The notes beneath the pieces were generated by a model. The model did not search any database and was not told the origin of the DNA. It worked only from the letters and a program-made list of their open reading frames with translations. Shown here piece after piece: positions 22,618-37,223 of a stretch of DNA of 64,000 bases (its first letter is position 1; every line of letters starts with the position of its first letter). Position numbers and translations under genes: made by a program. The stretch comes from Ruminococcus sp. CAG:254 (GTDB lineage Bacteria; Bacillota; Clostridia; Oscillospirales; Ruminococcaceae): NCBI GenBank assembly GCA_000433635.1, contig HF997977.1, positions 129,882-193,881 of the forward strand, written 5' to 3'.

Positions 22618-23910
22618 TTATTTTGTGGTGTTCTTTTTCGAGTCTTTTTTGTAGTGCATTGCTTCGGAAATGGTAATAACGGGGATTTTAGTGCGTTTAT
22701 GAACCTTTTCCAGAATATTTTTTTCGAAGCGAACATCGCCGATGAGAATACATTGTGTATCCGGATATTTATGAATATCTCGGCTGTGGATTGTTTTTGC
22801 ATATTCACTGGATTTTTTCCCATTTTCCAGCAGGTAATCAACAGAAACGCCAGCATCTTTCAGCAGAACAGCGATGGTTTTCAATACCATGCTTTCGCCG
22901 TAGATGGCAAGGTGGGTGATGTGTTTGTCCTGAAAATATGCCTTGAATTGGTCAACTGTTTCCGGATGCAACACCATTTCATTTAGGATGTCAATATAAG
23001 CTTTCGAGTAAATCTCATATTGAATATCAGAAGCTAAGCGTTTTTGTGGCTTTGCGACAGGCGTTGGCTTTGTAGCTGGCTTTTTTGGTGCAGTCGGTTT
23101 TTCGGTTTTTTTTGCAGGAGCAGGCAGCGTCAAGCTGGGCTTTGCAGCGGGATTGATTGCCCGTTCTTTCATGTAGTTGCTGTAGCAAGTCAGAATTTTT
23201 TCGGATTCTTGTTTGTTTTTTGCAAAGGCAATTTGTTTGCCCATGTCCAGCCAAAGCACCTTGTTGCACAGCCGTTTCATCTGAGCGACAGAGTGGCTGA
23301 CAAATAAAGTGGTTGCACCGCTTTGAATGACTTCCATCATTTTCTGTTCGCTTTTTCTTCGGAAACCGCCATCTCCAACGGATAACACTTCATCTAGAAT
23401 TAAGATTTCCGGATCAACCATACAGGCAATGGCAAATGCCAAACGGGAACGCATACCGCTGGAAAGCTGCTTGTACTTGTAAAACTGAAATTCTTTCAGC
23501 TCTGCAAATTCAATGATTTCATCAATGCGTTCCGTGATGAAATTCTTTTCATATCCCAGTAAAGCACCACGCATATAAATATTTTCGATGAGGTTCAAGT
23601 CGCTATCAAAACCCGTTCCCAACTCCAGCAGGGCACTGATATTTCCGTTGACTTGAATGCTCCCCTTGGCAGGTGGCAGAATGCCGCAGATTGCTTTTAA
23701 GATGGTAGATTTCCCAGCACCATTTGCACCAATGATACCTAGAAAATCACCTTTTTCCAGTGTGAAAGAAACATCTTCCACCGACCAGCGGCTTTCCACA
23801 CGCCGTTCTCGCTTGACTTTTTGAATCGTCCATTCTTTTAGTCCGATATCTCGGAAATCGCCCAGCAGGTAGCGAATATAGACGTGAGATGCATCAATAA
23901 TCGGTTCCAT
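22618..23910 (-). CDS. wzt: polysaccharide ABC exporter ATPase (Wzt/TagH-like) with Pro/Lys/Ala-rich linker and about 140-aa C-terminal domain
   Basis: Walker A GANGAGKST, signature LSSGMRSRL, Walker B ILILDEVLSVGD. Linker PAAKPSLTLPAPAKKTEKPTAPKKPATKPTPVAKP, then an additional domain. Confidence 0.85.
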   Translation of the reverse strand: MEPIIDASHVYIRYLLGDFRDIGLKEWTIQKVKRERRVESRWSVEDVSFTLEKGDFLGIIGANGAGKSTILKAICGILPPAKGSIQVNGNISALLELGTGFDSDLNLIENIYMRGALLGYEKNFITERIDEIIEFAELKEFQFYKYKQLSSGMRSRLAFAIACMVDPEILILDEVLSVGDGGFRRKSEQKMMEVIQSGATTLFVSHSVAQMKRLCNKVLWLDMGKQIAFAKNKQESEKILTCYSNYMKERAINPAAKPSLTLPAPAKKTEKPTAPKKPATKPTPVAKPQKRLASDIQYEIYSKAYIDILNEMVLHPETVDQFKAYFQDKHITHLAIYGESMVLKTIAVLLKDAGVSVDYLLENGKKSSEYAKTIHSRDIHKYPDTQCILIGDVRFEKNILEKVHKRTKIPVITISEAMHYKKDSKKNTTK

Positions 23911-23922
23911 ATTCGTTCCTCC

Positions 23923-34455: not shown

Positions 34456-34475
34456 TTAGATTGGAGGATACAGGA

Positions 34476-37223
34476 TTGTCGAAGAAATACGATGTCGGAA
34501 TTTTAGGCGTATGGATCGGCTGCAACTATGGAAGTATTGCAACTTACTATGCGTTGCATCAAGTCATTGCCTCTATGGGAAAGTCGATTCTGATGATTGA
34601 CAAGCCAATTTTATCAGAAAATGATGTAGAACGAAAAGAAACACATGCAAGAAGATTCGGAAGAGAACATTATCATATCAGCAAGCAGTATTGCTTGGAA
34701 GATTTGAAAGAACTGAATGAACTCTGTGACGGGTTTGTCATTGGCTCTGATCAGGTTTGGAACTATGGAATTAGTCGGGACTTTGGAAAGATGTTCTATC
34801 TGGATTTTGCAGAGGAACAGAAGAAAAAAATCGCCTATGCCGTTTCCTTTGGTCACGATGTAGACTTTGCACCAGCAGAAGAACGGGTGAAAATTGCCGA
34901 TTACATGAGCCGATTCGATGGCATTTCTGTTCGGGAAGCAGATGGCGTGCGACTTTGCCGGGATGATTATGGCATCTTGGCAAAGCAGGTTTTAGACCCA
35001 GTATTTGTAGCTGACCCTTCTATTTATCAGGGACTGATTGAAAAATCTTCTCATCGGGAAGAAGAACCATTTCTGGCATCCTATATCTTAGACCCAACGC
35101 CAGAGAAACGGGAAGCGTTGCTGCATCTTTCAAAGGAACTTGGCGGCATTAAAATCATCAATATGCTGGATGGATTGCCGTGGCTCTTTGAAAAGAATCG
35201 CAAGCTGATGAATTTGCCGAATTGCGTTGAAAATTTGCAGGTGGAAGATTGGCTGTACTATTTGAGTCATGCAAAGTTTGTTGTAACAGATTCCTGTCAT
35301 GGTGCAAGTTTCGCCTTAATTTTCAAGAAAAATTTTATTGCGATCGCCAACAAAAAGCGTGGATATTCTCGGTTCAAGTCACTGGCAGAACTGATGCATT
35401 TTGAATCGCATTTGGTGACAGATGTCAATCAGATTTTAACAGACAAAAAGTTGTTAGAGCCGATTGATTATGCAGCAGTAGAAGCAACCATACTTTCTGA
35501 GCGAAGCCGCTGTTACGCTTGGTTACAGGAAATCTTAAATCAACCGAAAAAAACGACAGAAACATTAAAGTTAGAGAATATTATTGGAAGTCCCAATTCC
35601 AACTCTCCGCATGCAATTTCGGTGCTGAATCGAAAACCCATTCAGAAAAAGAGCATCTCAGCATCAGCAATTACATCAAATTTACCAGTCATAGAATGTG
35701 CAGGCTGTGGGGCATGTGTCAGTATATGTCCAGTAAAGGCGTTGGAACTGAAACCGGATGAACATGGTCTTTATCGTGCCGTATTGAACGAAAAAACCTG
35801 CATCAACTGCGGAAAATGTTTGAAGGTTTGTCCATCTTATCGGCTGCCGTCCAATGCGAACACGACCACACCGAATTGTTATGCAGTGATTGCATCAGAT
35901 GCCGAGTTGCTGAAAAAAAGCTCCAGCGGTGGGGTATTCTCCCTGTTGGCAAAGAAAGCATTTGAACAGCAGGGTGCTGTTGGCGGTGCTGCTTGGAAAG
36001 AGGATCTCTCTGTAGAACATATTTTGATTGATCAGGAATCCGATATGCCGAAGCTGCGGAAATCCAAGTACCTGCAAAGTTATCTGGGCAATATCGATGC
36101 ACAGGTGAAAAAGCGGTTGCAGCAGGGACAGTTTGTATTATTCTCTGGCTGTCCATGTCAGATTGCCGGATTACGGGCATATCTCGGAAAAGATTATGAA
36201 AACCTGATTACCATTGATTTGCTCTGCGGAAACTCCCCATCTGCTGGATTTTTCCAGAAATATCTACAGGATGCTTTTGGGGATCAGGTGGCAAGTTATG
36301 AATTCCGGAACAAAGCACAAGGCTGGAATTCCGATTGTGTAAGCATTCAGTTAAAGTCCGGCGAACAGATTATTCGTCGTGGAAAAGCAGAAGATGCTTA
36401 TCAAAGTGTTTATCATAATCATACAATGTGTCCGCCGCATTGTCAGAACTGTAAGTATCAGCAGTTGCCACGGTTTGGCGATATCACCATTGGGGACTTC
36501 TGGGGCATCTCTAAAAGAATGCCGGAATTTGATTATACAAAGGGTGTTTCTGTTGTCATTTGTAACAATGAAAAGGGACAGGCATTCTTTGACCAGATTT
36601 CCGAACAGGAATTTACGCTGAAAAAGGAAGTTCCGCTGAAGTGGATTGGCGGAAATGGATATGCATTGGAAGGAAAGCATAATTATGCTTCTCCGTATCG
36701 GGATGCATTCTTTGATAAAGTTCGTACAGAGCCATTCGCCAAAGCAGTGAAGCTGGCGTTTGACCAGCAGAATCTAGGAGCTATTCCATCTGAATTTTTG
36801 AATCCGCTGCAATTCCATTCGCAGCAGATAGGATTCCAGTATGACCTTTATACATGGGAACAGCATTTGATTCAGGGAAGATTGGTTTTGATTCCGAAAG
36901 AACAGCAGTCAAAGCCAGGAAATTACGCAAGTATGCCGCTTGCAATGCATCTGCAGGGCGGAAAGCGATATCATTTGTTCATGCGGTTCAAGATTCAGAC
37001 AGAATCACAGTGGCTGAATCTGCATATCAAGGAGGCAGGTTCTAAGCGGCTGCAAATCATTCATCGTCATAAGGTTCAGCCGAACGATGCAAAGGAATGG
37101 GTGACCATTTCCAAGGATTTTGTACCAAATAATGATATTTATTCAGAATTTATGGTTGGTGCAATGCAGATTGCAGGCGAGGGCAGATTCCTTGCGATTG
37201 ACTATATTTATATCACCGATTAA
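34476..37223 (+). CDS. fusion protein with permuted order: polysaccharide pyruvyl transferase domain, then 2x[4Fe-4S] ferredoxin + FrhB/FdhB-like flavoprotein domain, then about 170-aa C-terminal beta-rich domain
   Basis: N-terminal PvT motifs (GVWIGCNYGSIATYYAL, GSDQVWNY, DSCHGASFALIF). CAGCGACVSICP and CINCGKCLKVCP cluster motifs. FrhB-like SSSGGVFSLLAK...GCPCQIAGL. Probable TTG start at 34476, 7 nt after GGAGGA. Confidence 0.8.
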   Translation: MSKKYDVGILGVWIGCNYGSIATYYALHQVIASMGKSILMIDKPILSENDVERKETHARRFGREHYHISKQYCLEDLKELNELCDGFVIGSDQVWNYGISRDFGKMFYLDFAEEQKKKIAYAVSFGHDVDFAPAEERVKIADYMSRFDGISVREADGVRLCRDDYGILAKQVLDPVFVADPSIYQGLIEKSSHREEEPFLASYILDPTPEKREALLHLSKELGGIKIINMLDGLPWLFEKNRKLMNLPNCVENLQVEDWLYYLSHAKFVVTDSCHGASFALIFKKNFIAIANKKRGYSRFKSLAELMHFESHLVTDVNQILTDKKLLEPIDYAAVEATILSERSRCYAWLQEILNQPKKTTETLKLENIIGSPNSNSPHAISVLNRKPIQKKSISASAITSNLPVIECAGCGACVSICPVKALELKPDEHGLYRAVLNEKTCINCGKCLKVCPSYRLPSNANTTTPNCYAVIASDAELLKKSSSGGVFSLLAKKAFEQQGAVGGAAWKEDLSVEHILIDQESDMPKLRKSKYLQSYLGNIDAQVKKRLQQGQFVLFSGCPCQIAGLRAYLGKDYENLITIDLLCGNSPSAGFFQKYLQDAFGDQVASYEFRNKAQGWNSDCVSIQLKSGEQIIRRGKAEDAYQSVYHNHTMCPPHCQNCKYQQLPRFGDITIGDFWGISKRMPEFDYTKGVSVVICNNEKGQAFFDQISEQEFTLKKEVPLKWIGGNGYALEGKHNYASPYRDAFFDKVRTEPFAKAVKLAFDQQNLGAIPSEFLNPLQFHSQQIGFQYDLYTWEQHLIQGRLVLIPKEQQSKPGNYASMPLAMHLQGGKRYHLFMRFKIQTESQWLNLHIKEAGSKRLQIIHRHKVQPNDAKEWVTISKDFVPNNDIYSEFMVGAMQIAGEGRFLAIDYIYITD

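Follow-up and report, generated by a model that had tools for sequence, protein, structure and literature searches.

A putative ABC-dependent galactofuranose glycan locus with pyruvyl transferase-reductase fusions in a human-gut Ruminococcus

Introduction

Which surface glycan is specified by the 14.6-kb gene island at positions 22618-37223 of a stretch of DNA from Ruminococcus sp. CAG:254, and what is done to the chain before it is exported? The whole stretch (64,000 nucleotides of contig HF997977.1) is called the window here. An open reading frame (ORF) map combined with Pfam and NCBIfam scans placed in this island, between housekeeping genes, two divergent arms that encode a uridine diphosphate (UDP)-galactopyranose mutase (Glf), two GlfT2-like glycosyltransferases of family 2 (GT2), here A and B, an exporter of the Wzm/Wzt type and three PS_pyruv_trans (pyruvyl transferase) domains. 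A preliminary description of the window had listed these parts, and each was recovered where it had been placed, with scores far beyond chance. Its inventory omitted the modules fused to two of the transferases, a 79-aa ORF between glf and wzm and a 180-aa C-terminal extension of Wzt. For Ruminococcus species that degrade fibre, we know of no chemical description of an envelope glycan. The best explanation of the locus as a whole, which we hold with modest preference to be the correct one, is an ATP-binding cassette (ABC) transporter-dependent, galactofuranose (Galf)-based surface glycan that would be decorated by phosphoenolpyruvate (PEP)-dependent transferases, two of them fused to reductases.

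A probable galactofuranose backbone and ABC-dependent route

Glf passes the equivalog-level test over its full length, FAD-binding N-terminus included (Table 1), and glf is the sole nucleotide-sugar gene of the locus. Both GlfT2-like proteins exceed the gathering score of the Glft2_N model (PF17994, 26.1 bits), so the profile search that the preliminary description had proposed as a check did not place them in unrelated families. Among solved structures, A matched the galactofuranosyltransferases 9dtp and 9oa3 (E 3e-31; 2.9e-31 for 9dtp) and M. tuberculosis GlfT2 (4fix, E 1.5e-28), and its alignment to 4fix and 9dtp covers about 415 residues (aa 37/39-449/453). B matched 4fix (E 1.2e-24) in the catalytic core, over about 250 residues (aa 237-489), and along a weak N-terminal stretch. 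The NVGGAGGF and DDD motifs that had been reported are present in both proteins (613 and 636 aa), the latter as MDDD, together with GDDVE and WH, and the DDD, GDDVE and WH of both paralogues fall on the catalytic positions of GlfT2 (DDD being residues 276-278 of the 4fix chain, with a His-tag offset). Classed by domain layout and catalytic motifs, A and B are enzymes of the GlfT2 type. That they would transfer Galf processively from UDP-Galf, in alternating β-1,5 and β-1,6 linkages, is supported indirectly, through their linkage to glf.

The permease and its cognate ATPase complete a Wzm/Wzt-type pathway. The best NCBIfam model for Wzm is the galactan-export permease NF050109, and the top matches of Wzt are TagH and galactan-export Wzt/RfbE, all of them under their equivalog cutoffs. 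Hydrophobic segments consistent with a multi-pass membrane protein occur in Wzm only, and no enzyme of the locus has any transmembrane-like segment. No primer enzyme of the Bac_transf/WecA type, no Wzx or Wzy and no LytR-CPS2A-Psr (LCP) ligase was found among the ORFs of at least 100 aa across the 64-kb window, in line with what had been noted before. The earlier proposal of an ABC-transporter-dependent, Galf-based pathway thus stands, and so does its corollary of a primer made elsewhere: related loci of Clostridia have a Bac_transf gene beside the same module. The primer enzyme, which in relatives is Bac_transf, is probably encoded elsewhere in this genome. The backbone and export steps are those expected from what is established for Glf, GlfT2 and Wzm/Wzt, and we consider the Galf backbone and the ABC-dependent route highly probable.

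Relatives of GlfT2-like A were found in 16 genome loci, including metagenome-assembled genomes (MAGs) of Ruminococcus and other Oscillospiraceae, MAGs labelled Ruminiclostridium, and Acetatifactor, and the recurrence of the parts was judged in those with enough DNA. In L009 and L012 the genes run in a single direction, with glf, a third and distant GlfT2-like gene, GlfT2A, the stand-alone transferase, GlfT2B and two FrhB fusions; L012 and L015 additionally carry wzm/wzt, extra glycosyltransferases and acetyltransferase fusions. Around more distant homologues of the fusion proteins the neighbourhood is preserved: the metagenome contig L022 has GT4, GT2, GLF, GlfT2-like, FrhB-pyruvyl transferase, ABC ATPase, ABC-2 permease, Wzy_C and Bac_transf genes, and the Blautia locus L023 has Bac_transf, GT2 genes, ABC-2, ABC ATPase, GlfT2-like, pyruvyl transferase-FrhB, pyruvyl transferase and GLF. 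Since the pair recurs with glf and wzm/wzt in Oscillospiraceae, Ruminococcus bins, L022 and Blautia, the GlfT2-like gene and the FrhB-pyruvyl transferase gene are, by this comparison, a conserved unit within ABC-dependent Galf loci of Clostridia. The synteny comparison that had been suggested therefore turned out positive, and mycobacterial-type galactan machinery (Glf, GlfT2, Wzm/Wzt) emerges as a conserved module of gut Clostridia (Ruminococcus, other Oscillospiraceae and Blautia), with the pyruvyl transferase-reductase fusion tightly paired to it. Our literature searches returned nothing on point for Ruminococcus with galactofuranose or for GlfT2 in Firmicutes.

Contig L022 shows a further arrangement. 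At L022:16263-18253, Wzy_C (O-antigen ligase/O-oligosaccharyltransferase type) and a 212-aa Bac_transf adjoin the GlfT2/FrhB-pyruvyl transferase/ABC module, and phage terminase and portal genes come after them. This arrangement suggests that, in that organism, the fate of the glycan depends on a ligase.

Two transferase domains are fused to iron-sulfur flavin reductases

The three PS_pyruv_trans (PF04230) domains, with 92.4, 57.9 and 97.9 bits, all clear the gathering score of 25.3, and each match spans positions 1 to 278-279 of the 280-position model. One of them stands alone in a 385-aa protein, and the other two reside in four-module fusions of 914 and 920 aa (Table 1). The pyruvate decoration proposed in the preliminary description is incomplete as stated, as the fusion of two of them to intact Fe-S/flavin reductases had been overlooked. 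Module by module, the two fusions are 33-38% identical, and their domain order is permuted. With modules this divergent, the permutation is ancient, and both orders have been retained; the reductase-transferase fusion is, to judge from these comparisons, old and selected.

The redox modules look functional. FrhB_FdhB_C (PF04432) scores 71.9 and 78.7 bits and PF04422 22.0 and 29.9 bits (gathering score 22). In single-sequence searches of the PDB, the FrhB part matched only ferredoxins and the 385-aa transferase matched nothing. A profile of 42 homologues matched the F420H2-oxidase half of Fsr (7np8; positions 9-346, E 6e-13) and an FrhB-like subunit (8rja_E, E 2e-14). Across these homologues, which are 41-81% identical, C166, C190, C263 and C266 and the SSGG, GxPCQ and GDFW motifs are invariant; it is these ligands and motifs, together with the profile matches, that suggest an active module. 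Clostridia are, to our knowledge, not known to make F420. The C-terminal modules gave confident AlphaFold models (predicted local distance difference test 94.9 and 89.1); they appear carbohydrate-binding-like and would hold the enzyme on the nascent polymer. Enzymes with glycan-binding-like modules and no membrane segment are expected to be cytoplasmic, which fits modification of the polymer before export.

No locus protein matched the MurA or MurB families in the Pfam/NCBIfam scans, none of the three pyruvyl transferases reached the CsaB-type NCBIfam models, and the 385-aa protein had no NCBIfam match of any kind at E<=0.01. Relatives at E<=1e-10 number at least 3465 and at least 512 for the two fusion architectures among the candidates scored. 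With thousands of members, the fusions thus make up a large and uncharacterised family that joins a pyruvyl transferase to an Fe-S/flavin reductase and a lectin-like or carbohydrate-binding module (CBM)-like domain.

Other architectures were seen among the relatives. Four proteins of 1296-1308 aa (P0195, P0197, P0199 and P0200) have two PS_pyruv_trans-like regions with a TPP_enzyme_N domain and a UDP-GlcNAc 2-epimerase-like domain, and others of 1400-1526 aa have the FrhB-pyruvyl transferase core with hexapeptide acetyltransferase and NAD-epimerase domains.

A possible enolpyruvyl route to lactyl ethers

The proposed pathway begins with Glf, which would turn UDP-galactopyranose into UDP-Galf, and the two cytoplasmic GlfT2-type enzymes would then lengthen a Galf chain on a polyprenyl-linked primer supplied by a phosphoglycosyl transferase encoded outside the window. 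Before export, the three PEP-dependent PS_pyruv_trans domains would decorate the chain, two of them within the enzymes of about 915 aa that also contain ferredoxin, an FrhB-type reductase and a carbohydrate-binding-like module. In these, the transferase domain would most likely leave an enolpyruvyl (vinyl) ether on a Galf hydroxyl, and the fused reductase, fed by reduced ferredoxin, would convert it to a 1-carboxyethyl (lactyl) ether. For the stand-alone 385-aa transferase, which has no partner module, the product may be a conventional pyruvate ketal. Wzm/Wzt would finally export the finished chain, and the locus holds no gene for attaching it to peptidoglycan, lipid or protein.

The presence of an intact Fe-S/flavin reductase in the same chain as the transferase argues for chemistry beyond a plain pyruvate ketal, and we propose an enolpyruvyl intermediate since a finished ketal has no site at which a reductase or a MenD-type enzyme could work. 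Flavin reductases such as MurB saturate α,β-unsaturated carboxylates, the class to which the enolpyruvyl ether CH2=C(COO-)-O-sugar belongs, and MenD attacks unsaturated carboxylates with a carbanion, by conjugate addition to the C=C. The transferase-MenD-like fusions with alcohol dehydrogenase or short-chain dehydrogenase/reductase (SDR) neighbours in two relatives (L020 and L019, described below) were therefore counted as pointing to an alkene intermediate. MurA and MurB would share with the fusions only the proposed chemistry, a PEP-derived enolpyruvyl ether whose C=C is then reduced to a 1-carboxyethyl ether. They differ in substrate (a nucleotide sugar), reductant (NADPH) and fold: MurA has the EPSP-synthase fold and is not PF04230, MurB has the FAD-binding PCMH fold and is not FrhB-type, and the locus proteins match neither. 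A closer precedent for the reductase, likened by family, is BciB, an FrhB-family, ferredoxin-dependent FAD/Fe-S vinyl reductase that takes vinyl to ethyl in an organism without F420-dependent metabolism (PMC4836224), although its substrate is a tetrapyrrole (it is the chlorophyll 8-vinyl reductase) and it is not fused to a transferase.

A survey of Klebsiella capsule loci provides independent support. Types K8, K22, K37 and K66 have a pyruvyl transferase gene, yet their capsules are listed as non-pyruvylated; in the K66 cps locus a unique pyruvyl transferase is listed beside a unique 'coenzyme F420 hydrogenase', and the pyruvyl transferase unique to K22 and K37 lies beside a type-specific nitroreductase (PMC4616057). 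According to a title cited in PMC3857182, K22 and K37 contain 4-O-[(S)-1-carboxyethyl]-GlcA (GlcA, glucuronic acid). By gene descriptions, these loci share with ours a PS_pyruv_trans gene paired with a flavin or Fe-S reductase gene, and the K22, K37 and K66 capsules are without ketal pyruvate while K22 and K37 bear the 1-carboxyethyl ether (PMC4616057). The genes there are separate and unfused, the pathway is of the Wzx/Wzy type and the acceptor sugars are others.

Several points weigh against the pathway as drawn. Every characterised PS_pyruv_trans enzyme forms a ketal, and how this family works mechanistically has yet to be settled (PMC10435577). A lactyl ether in the K66 capsule is not confirmed, the searchable literature gave no paper tying FrhB-like proteins to lactyl ethers, the MenD argument is one of analogy, and the FrhB module might act on a different substrate. 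As to the backbone, a GlfT1-type initiator, a primer and a ligase are absent from the window, which therefore does not show how the chain begins or where it ends up, and homology to GlfT2 does not prove that the polymer would consist of Galf only. We also know of no polysaccharide on which an enolpyruvyl ether has been demonstrated.

On balance, enolpyruvyl-to-lactyl chemistry by the fused domains seems to us a serious possibility that falls a little short of probable. A wider reading, which we put forward more tentatively, is that PS_pyruv_trans domains in fusions are enolpyruvyl transferases that place a vinyl-ether handle, to be finished by interchangeable tailoring modules: FrhB would give the lactyl ether, and a MenD-like domain with a dehydrogenase would give a longer carboxylated ether. 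If true, this would supply a general route, missing until now, to lactyl ethers that have long been described from bacterial polysaccharides (Klebsiella K22/K37; E. coli O58, O69, O124, O146 and O150), which also occur in the O-antigens of Shigella dysenteriae types 3 and 5 and in Butyrivibrio exopolysaccharide (EPS); the MenD-like variants would give a longer carboxylated ether unseen so far in any polysaccharide; and gut Clostridia would have a domain-cassette mechanism that diversifies their surface glycans. The fusion family is in any case a concrete hypothesis for the addition of lactyl (1-carboxyethyl) ethers, for which no assigned enzymology was found in the searchable literature. Apart from the Klebsiella cps survey, our literature searches returned nothing on point for FrhB or F420 hydrogenase together with a pyruvyl transferase, or for the biosynthesis of lactyl ethers.

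Decoration modules are exchanged between close strains

We compared the window with four close relatives, L003, L020, L019 and L001. In L003, whose neighbouring genes are 97-99% identical, DNA homology is continuous over 22646-34455, lost over 34456-35684 and back at 35685. What is lost coincides exactly with the PS_pyruv_trans domain of the 920-aa protein. Its counterpart in L003, a fourth transferase type, has about 35% identity, as against 75-98% for the Fe-S/FrhB/CBM part. L020 shows the converse: it keeps the stand-alone transferase (83%), GlfT2B (91%) and the transferase domain of the 920-aa protein (84%), and homology stops at 35617, in the interdomain linker. There the transferase domain is followed by a thiamine pyrophosphate (TPP) domain (L020:3993-6800, P0201; MenD 285.9 bits against a trusted cutoff of 244.2), and a zinc alcohol dehydrogenase gene comes next. 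A second fusion of this kind, beside an SDR gene, was found in L019 (L019:5426-8185, P0245; MenD (SEPHCHC synthase) 252.9 bits against 244.2). The transferase domain of the 920-aa protein (34461-35617) recurs in P0201 and P0245 at 78-84% identity. In L001, DNA homology stops at 35778, the called gene encodes a 440-aa pyruvyl transferase only, and a Y1_Tnp (IS200-type) transposase gene adjoins this shortened gene.

The breakpoints in L003, L020 and L001 mark the linker after the transferase domain as a recombination joint, at which, as these alignments indicate, transferase domains that bind the acceptor and modules that 'finish' the product are combined in different ways. Domain-level swaps between near-identical strains show that surface-glycan decoration can be re-programmed with the backbone genes untouched. 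Because modification genes are exchanged as cassettes between strains, we propose that the decoration pattern is a strain-variable surface antigen. Such variation fits what is expected of an exposed antigen under phage or host pressure, and the preliminary idea of a phage receptor or capsule-like antigen, although unproven, fits it better than SLH or scaffoldin anchoring. For gut commensals, decoration swaps matter to phage susceptibility, to strain typing and to immune recognition, e.g. by intelectin and other Galf-specific lectins.

A related GlfT2/pyruvyl transferase locus in L019 also encodes a phosphonopyruvate decarboxylase (L019:89-1213, TIGR03297, 456 bits against a cutoff of 312.5). 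It suggests phosphonate decoration in that strain; the contig edge precedes any view of a PEP mutase.

Alternative explanations and fate of the polymer

All three transferase domains might instead place ordinary ketals on a plain galactofuranan, with the Fe-S/FrhB modules as accessories that keep the FAD of Glf reduced, sense redox state or act on another substrate. UDP-galactopyranose mutase does require reduced flavin, and the characterised PF04230 members are all ketal-forming, 5,6-pyruvylated Galf itself being known from the Klebsiella K12 capsule (PMC6801904, PMC10435577). The reductase, however, is fused to the transferase and not to Glf, and it was retained through the permutation and in thousands of homologues; in Klebsiella, it is precisely in types recorded as lacking pyruvylation that a pyruvyl transferase and a reductase-type gene occur together; and sister strains exchange the reductase for a MenD-like, C-C bond-forming enzyme, which would be senseless for a finished ketal. 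We therefore consider a locus of plain ketals unlikely, while giving it some weight. As a main role of the FrhB module, reduction of the Glf flavin was rejected, since the module is fused to a transferase and also occurs with a MenD-like replacement. The backbone has a rival of its own, in which the GlfT2-like pair does not make homogalactofuranan but uses another donor, builds a mixed repeat or works as a GlfT1-like initiator or adaptor with a polymerase. The paralogues are only 30% identical to each other and 22-30% identical to mycobacterial GlfT2 in the aligned core, neither matched the GlfT2 equivalog model in the NCBIfam scan, and related loci hold the third GlfT2-like gene and extra GT2, GT4 and GT8 genes. 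That glf is the only nucleotide-sugar gene present, that it accompanies GlfT2-like genes in most related loci and that the catalytic motifs are conserved in both paralogues makes this rather improbable.

The Galf-based glycan preferred here may end in more than one place. A wall polymer is plausible, and in Gram-positive bacteria the default for ABC-dependent polymers is linkage by an LCP ligase, here one encoded elsewhere. Alternatively, the glycan may be a capsule or EPS, may be lipid-anchored or may be transferred to surface proteins such as an S-layer or cellulosome components. This would agree with the lack of an LCP ligase in the window, with the YfhO GT-C gene at 56489-59125 and with L022, where Wzy_C and a small Bac_transf beside the same module resemble the ABC-dependent S-layer glycan loci of Geobacillus; moreover, C. 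thermocellum cellulosomal proteins bear Galf-containing O-glycans. By analogy, these O-glycans and the Wzy_C of L022 leave room for a fate that involves a ligase or O-glycosylation. However, the locus has no linked ligase of any kind within the 64-kb window, and GlfT2-type enzymes are polymerases rather than builders of oligosaccharides, and we regard a fate other than peptidoglycan as a minority possibility that nonetheless merits attention. The preliminary description had suggested a surface anchor for SLH (surface-layer homology) or scaffoldin proteins, i.e. a pyruvylated secondary cell-wall polymer, and this idea did not survive. The adjacent gene does encode a dockerin protein, and pyruvylated secondary cell-wall polymers anchor SLH proteins in Bacillus and Paenibacillus (PMC10435577). 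Scans of the 64-kb window found no SLH domain, though, the transferases are not CsaB-type by NCBIfam, and the SLH epitope is 4,6-pyruvyl-ManNAc (ManNAc, N-acetylmannosamine) and not Galf. In the related loci compared, the dockerin gene showed no co-conservation with the galactan module outside close strains. Ruminococcal cellulosomes are attached by sortase through ScaE, not by SLH domains. We hold SLH anchoring to be very improbable.

Comparison with known systems

The locus is a mycobacterial/Klebsiella-type ABC-dependent galactan pathway to which uncharacterised modular PEP-transferase/reductase fusions are added. With the mycobacterial arabinogalactan module (Glf, GlfT1, GlfT2, Wzm-Wzt) it shares the mutase, a GlfT2-type GT2 enzyme with an N-terminal β-sandwich, DDD and catalytic Asp and His, as well as the predicted cytoplasmic assembly on lipid and export by an ABC-2 Wzm/Wzt system, the best permease model being named 'galactan export'. 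In contrast to that module, GlfT1 is absent and two divergent GlfT2 paralogues take the place of one; the host is a Firmicute without an arabinan or mycolate context; the chain would be decorated by PEP-dependent enzymes; and the primer enzyme of relatives is Bac_transf instead of WecA. The Klebsiella O1/O2 D-galactan I cluster (wzm, wzt, wbbM, glf, wbbN, wbbO) likewise combines glf with Wzm/Wzt in a compact locus, follows the ABC route and has its primer (WecA) elsewhere, but it uses other glycosyltransferase families, builds a Galf-galactopyranose disaccharide repeat for Gram-negative lipopolysaccharide and has no pyruvyl transferase or reductase modules. CsaB-type transferases resemble the domains described here in belonging to PF04230, using PEP as donor and acting on a lipid-linked wall-glycan precursor. 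Here there is no match to the CsaB NCBIfam models, the acceptor would be Galf and not ManNAc, an SLH partner is missing, and two of the three domains are fused to reductases.

Locus organization, gene starts and surroundings

In order of transcription, the minus arm encodes GlfT2-like A, the 914-aa fusion, Glf, the 79-aa ORF, Wzm and Wzt, and the plus arm encodes the stand-alone PS_pyruv_trans protein, GlfT2-like B and the 920-aa fusion (Table 1).

Table 1. Genes, modules and control region of the island, in window coordinates
Feature	Position	Strand	Residues	Basis or description
Wzt, ABC exporter ATPase	22618..23910	-	430 aa	ABC_tran 84 bits
Wzt: nucleotide-binding domain	about 23164-23805	-	aa 36-249	
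Wzt: lineage-specific C-terminal extension	22621-23160	-	180 aa	
Wzt: C-terminal domain, part of the extension	about 22621-23013	-	~130 aa	
Wzm, ABC-2 permease	23923..24690	-	255 aa	PF01061 (ABC2_membrane) 43 bits; NF050109 galactan_ABC_perm 76.8 bits
Conserved small ORF	24848..25087	-	79 aa	Position between glf and wzm; conservation
Glf, UDP-galactopyranose mutase	25104..26210	-	368 aa	PF03275 282.7 bits; TIGR00031 420.6 bits (equivalog cutoff 303.75); NAD_binding_8 73.6 bits
914-aa fusion protein	26237..28981	-	914 aa	Ferredoxin + FrhB/FdhB + PS_pyruv_trans + C-terminal domain
914-aa: 2x[4Fe-4S] ferredoxin domain	28799-28945	-	aa 13-61	
914-aa: FrhB/FdhB N + C flavin/Fe-S domains	28043-28756	-	aa 76-313	
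914-aa: PS_pyruv_trans	27026-27841	-	aa 381-652	
914-aa: C-terminal long helix + GG/ILEI/PANDER-like (lectin-like) domain	26240-26818	-	aa 722-914	
GlfT2-like galactofuranosyltransferase A, GT2	28985..30826	-	613 aa	Glft2_N 40.9 bits
Divergent AT-rich control region, 545 bp	30827..31371			Promoter-like matches
Stand-alone PS_pyruv_trans protein	31372..32529	+	385 aa	PF04230 57.9 bits
GlfT2-like galactofuranosyltransferase B, GT2	32545..34455	+	636 aa	Glft2_N 29.4 bits
920-aa fusion protein, permuted domain order	34461..37223	+	920 aa	PS_pyruv_trans + ferredoxin + FrhB/FdhB + CBM-like domain
920-aa: PS_pyruv_trans (cassette)	cassette 34461-35684	+	domain aa 22-298	
920-aa: 2x[4Fe-4S] ferredoxin domain	35694-35837	+	aa 412-459	
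920-aa: FrhB/FdhB	35880-36614	+	aa 474-718	
920-aa: CBM4/22/29-like beta-sandwich, C-terminal	36714-37220	+	aa 752-920	

In Wzt, a Pro/Lys/Ala/Thr-rich linker joins the nucleotide-binding domain to the C-terminal domain, whose alternating hydrophobic and polar runs were judged by eye as an alpha/beta pattern and not a beta-sandwich. The 180-aa extension had no Pfam match, Wzt_C included, and only 7 close (near-identical) relatives among 5.8 billion proteins; the Wzt of more distant loci has about 254 aa and lacks it. The C-terminal domain does not resemble the hexapeptide ORF that comes after wzt in L012. The 79-aa ORF matched no Pfam or NCBIfam model and has no predicted membrane segment, and it is intact at the same position in L003, L004 and L005 (64-96% identical).

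The control region between the arms contains a perfect sigma-70 consensus, TTGACA-17-TATAAT (12/12), on the minus strand at 31024..30996, exactly upstream of the minus arm, and TTGCAA-17-TATAAT with an extended TG on the plus strand at 31200..31228. Counted over the whole divergent region, promoter matches are not above chance. The intergenic repeats are AT-rich and uninformative, and an Rfam scan of 22000-38000 matched no family. The coordinates given in the preliminary description were correct except for the start of the stand-alone transferase, which is 31372 and not the upstream TTG: a ribosome-binding site (AAGGAG) and the gene calls in L001 and L002 favour it over the longer TTG start at 31243, which was rejected. 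A 159-aa ORF at 30839-31318 was likewise rejected as a gene, as it has no family match, overlaps the promoters and is uncalled in L001 and L002.

The left flank of the locus holds nifS, nifU and a gene for an HD-domain protein, and the right flank holds the dockerin protein gene, tgt, a helix-turn-helix (HTH) regulator, BacA/UppP and FBPase. Elsewhere, the window includes a glycoside hydrolase family 48 (GH48) cellulase, a GH1 enzyme, ruvAB, an energy-coupling factor (ECF) transporter and a YfhO GT-C protein, among others. The nearest genome record is the human-gut MAG 'uncultured Ruminococcus sp. MGYG-HGUT-00605', with a GlfT2A protein 97% identical, and the host is a human-gut, cellulosome-type Ruminococcus.

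The GH48 cellulase (6934-10503, +; 1189 aa, with a Big_2 domain) fits, with the dockerin gene, a Ruminococcus of the cellulosome type. The dockerin protein itself (37295-38575, -) is a secreted protein of 426 aa with a central type I dockerin between two similar halves. It is only 72% identical in L003, although the neighbouring tgt is 98.7% identical there, which marks it as another fast-evolving surface gene beside the glycan locus. The YfhO-family GT-C membrane protein (56489-59125, +; 878 aa, 573 bits) lies about 20 kb from the locus, with no link shown; its family glycosylates teichoic acids from polyprenyl-phosphate sugars. At 2209-6907 (-), an operon encodes an ABC ATPase, an ABC-2 permease, an ABC_transp_aux (GldG-like) protein and a DUF4340 protein.

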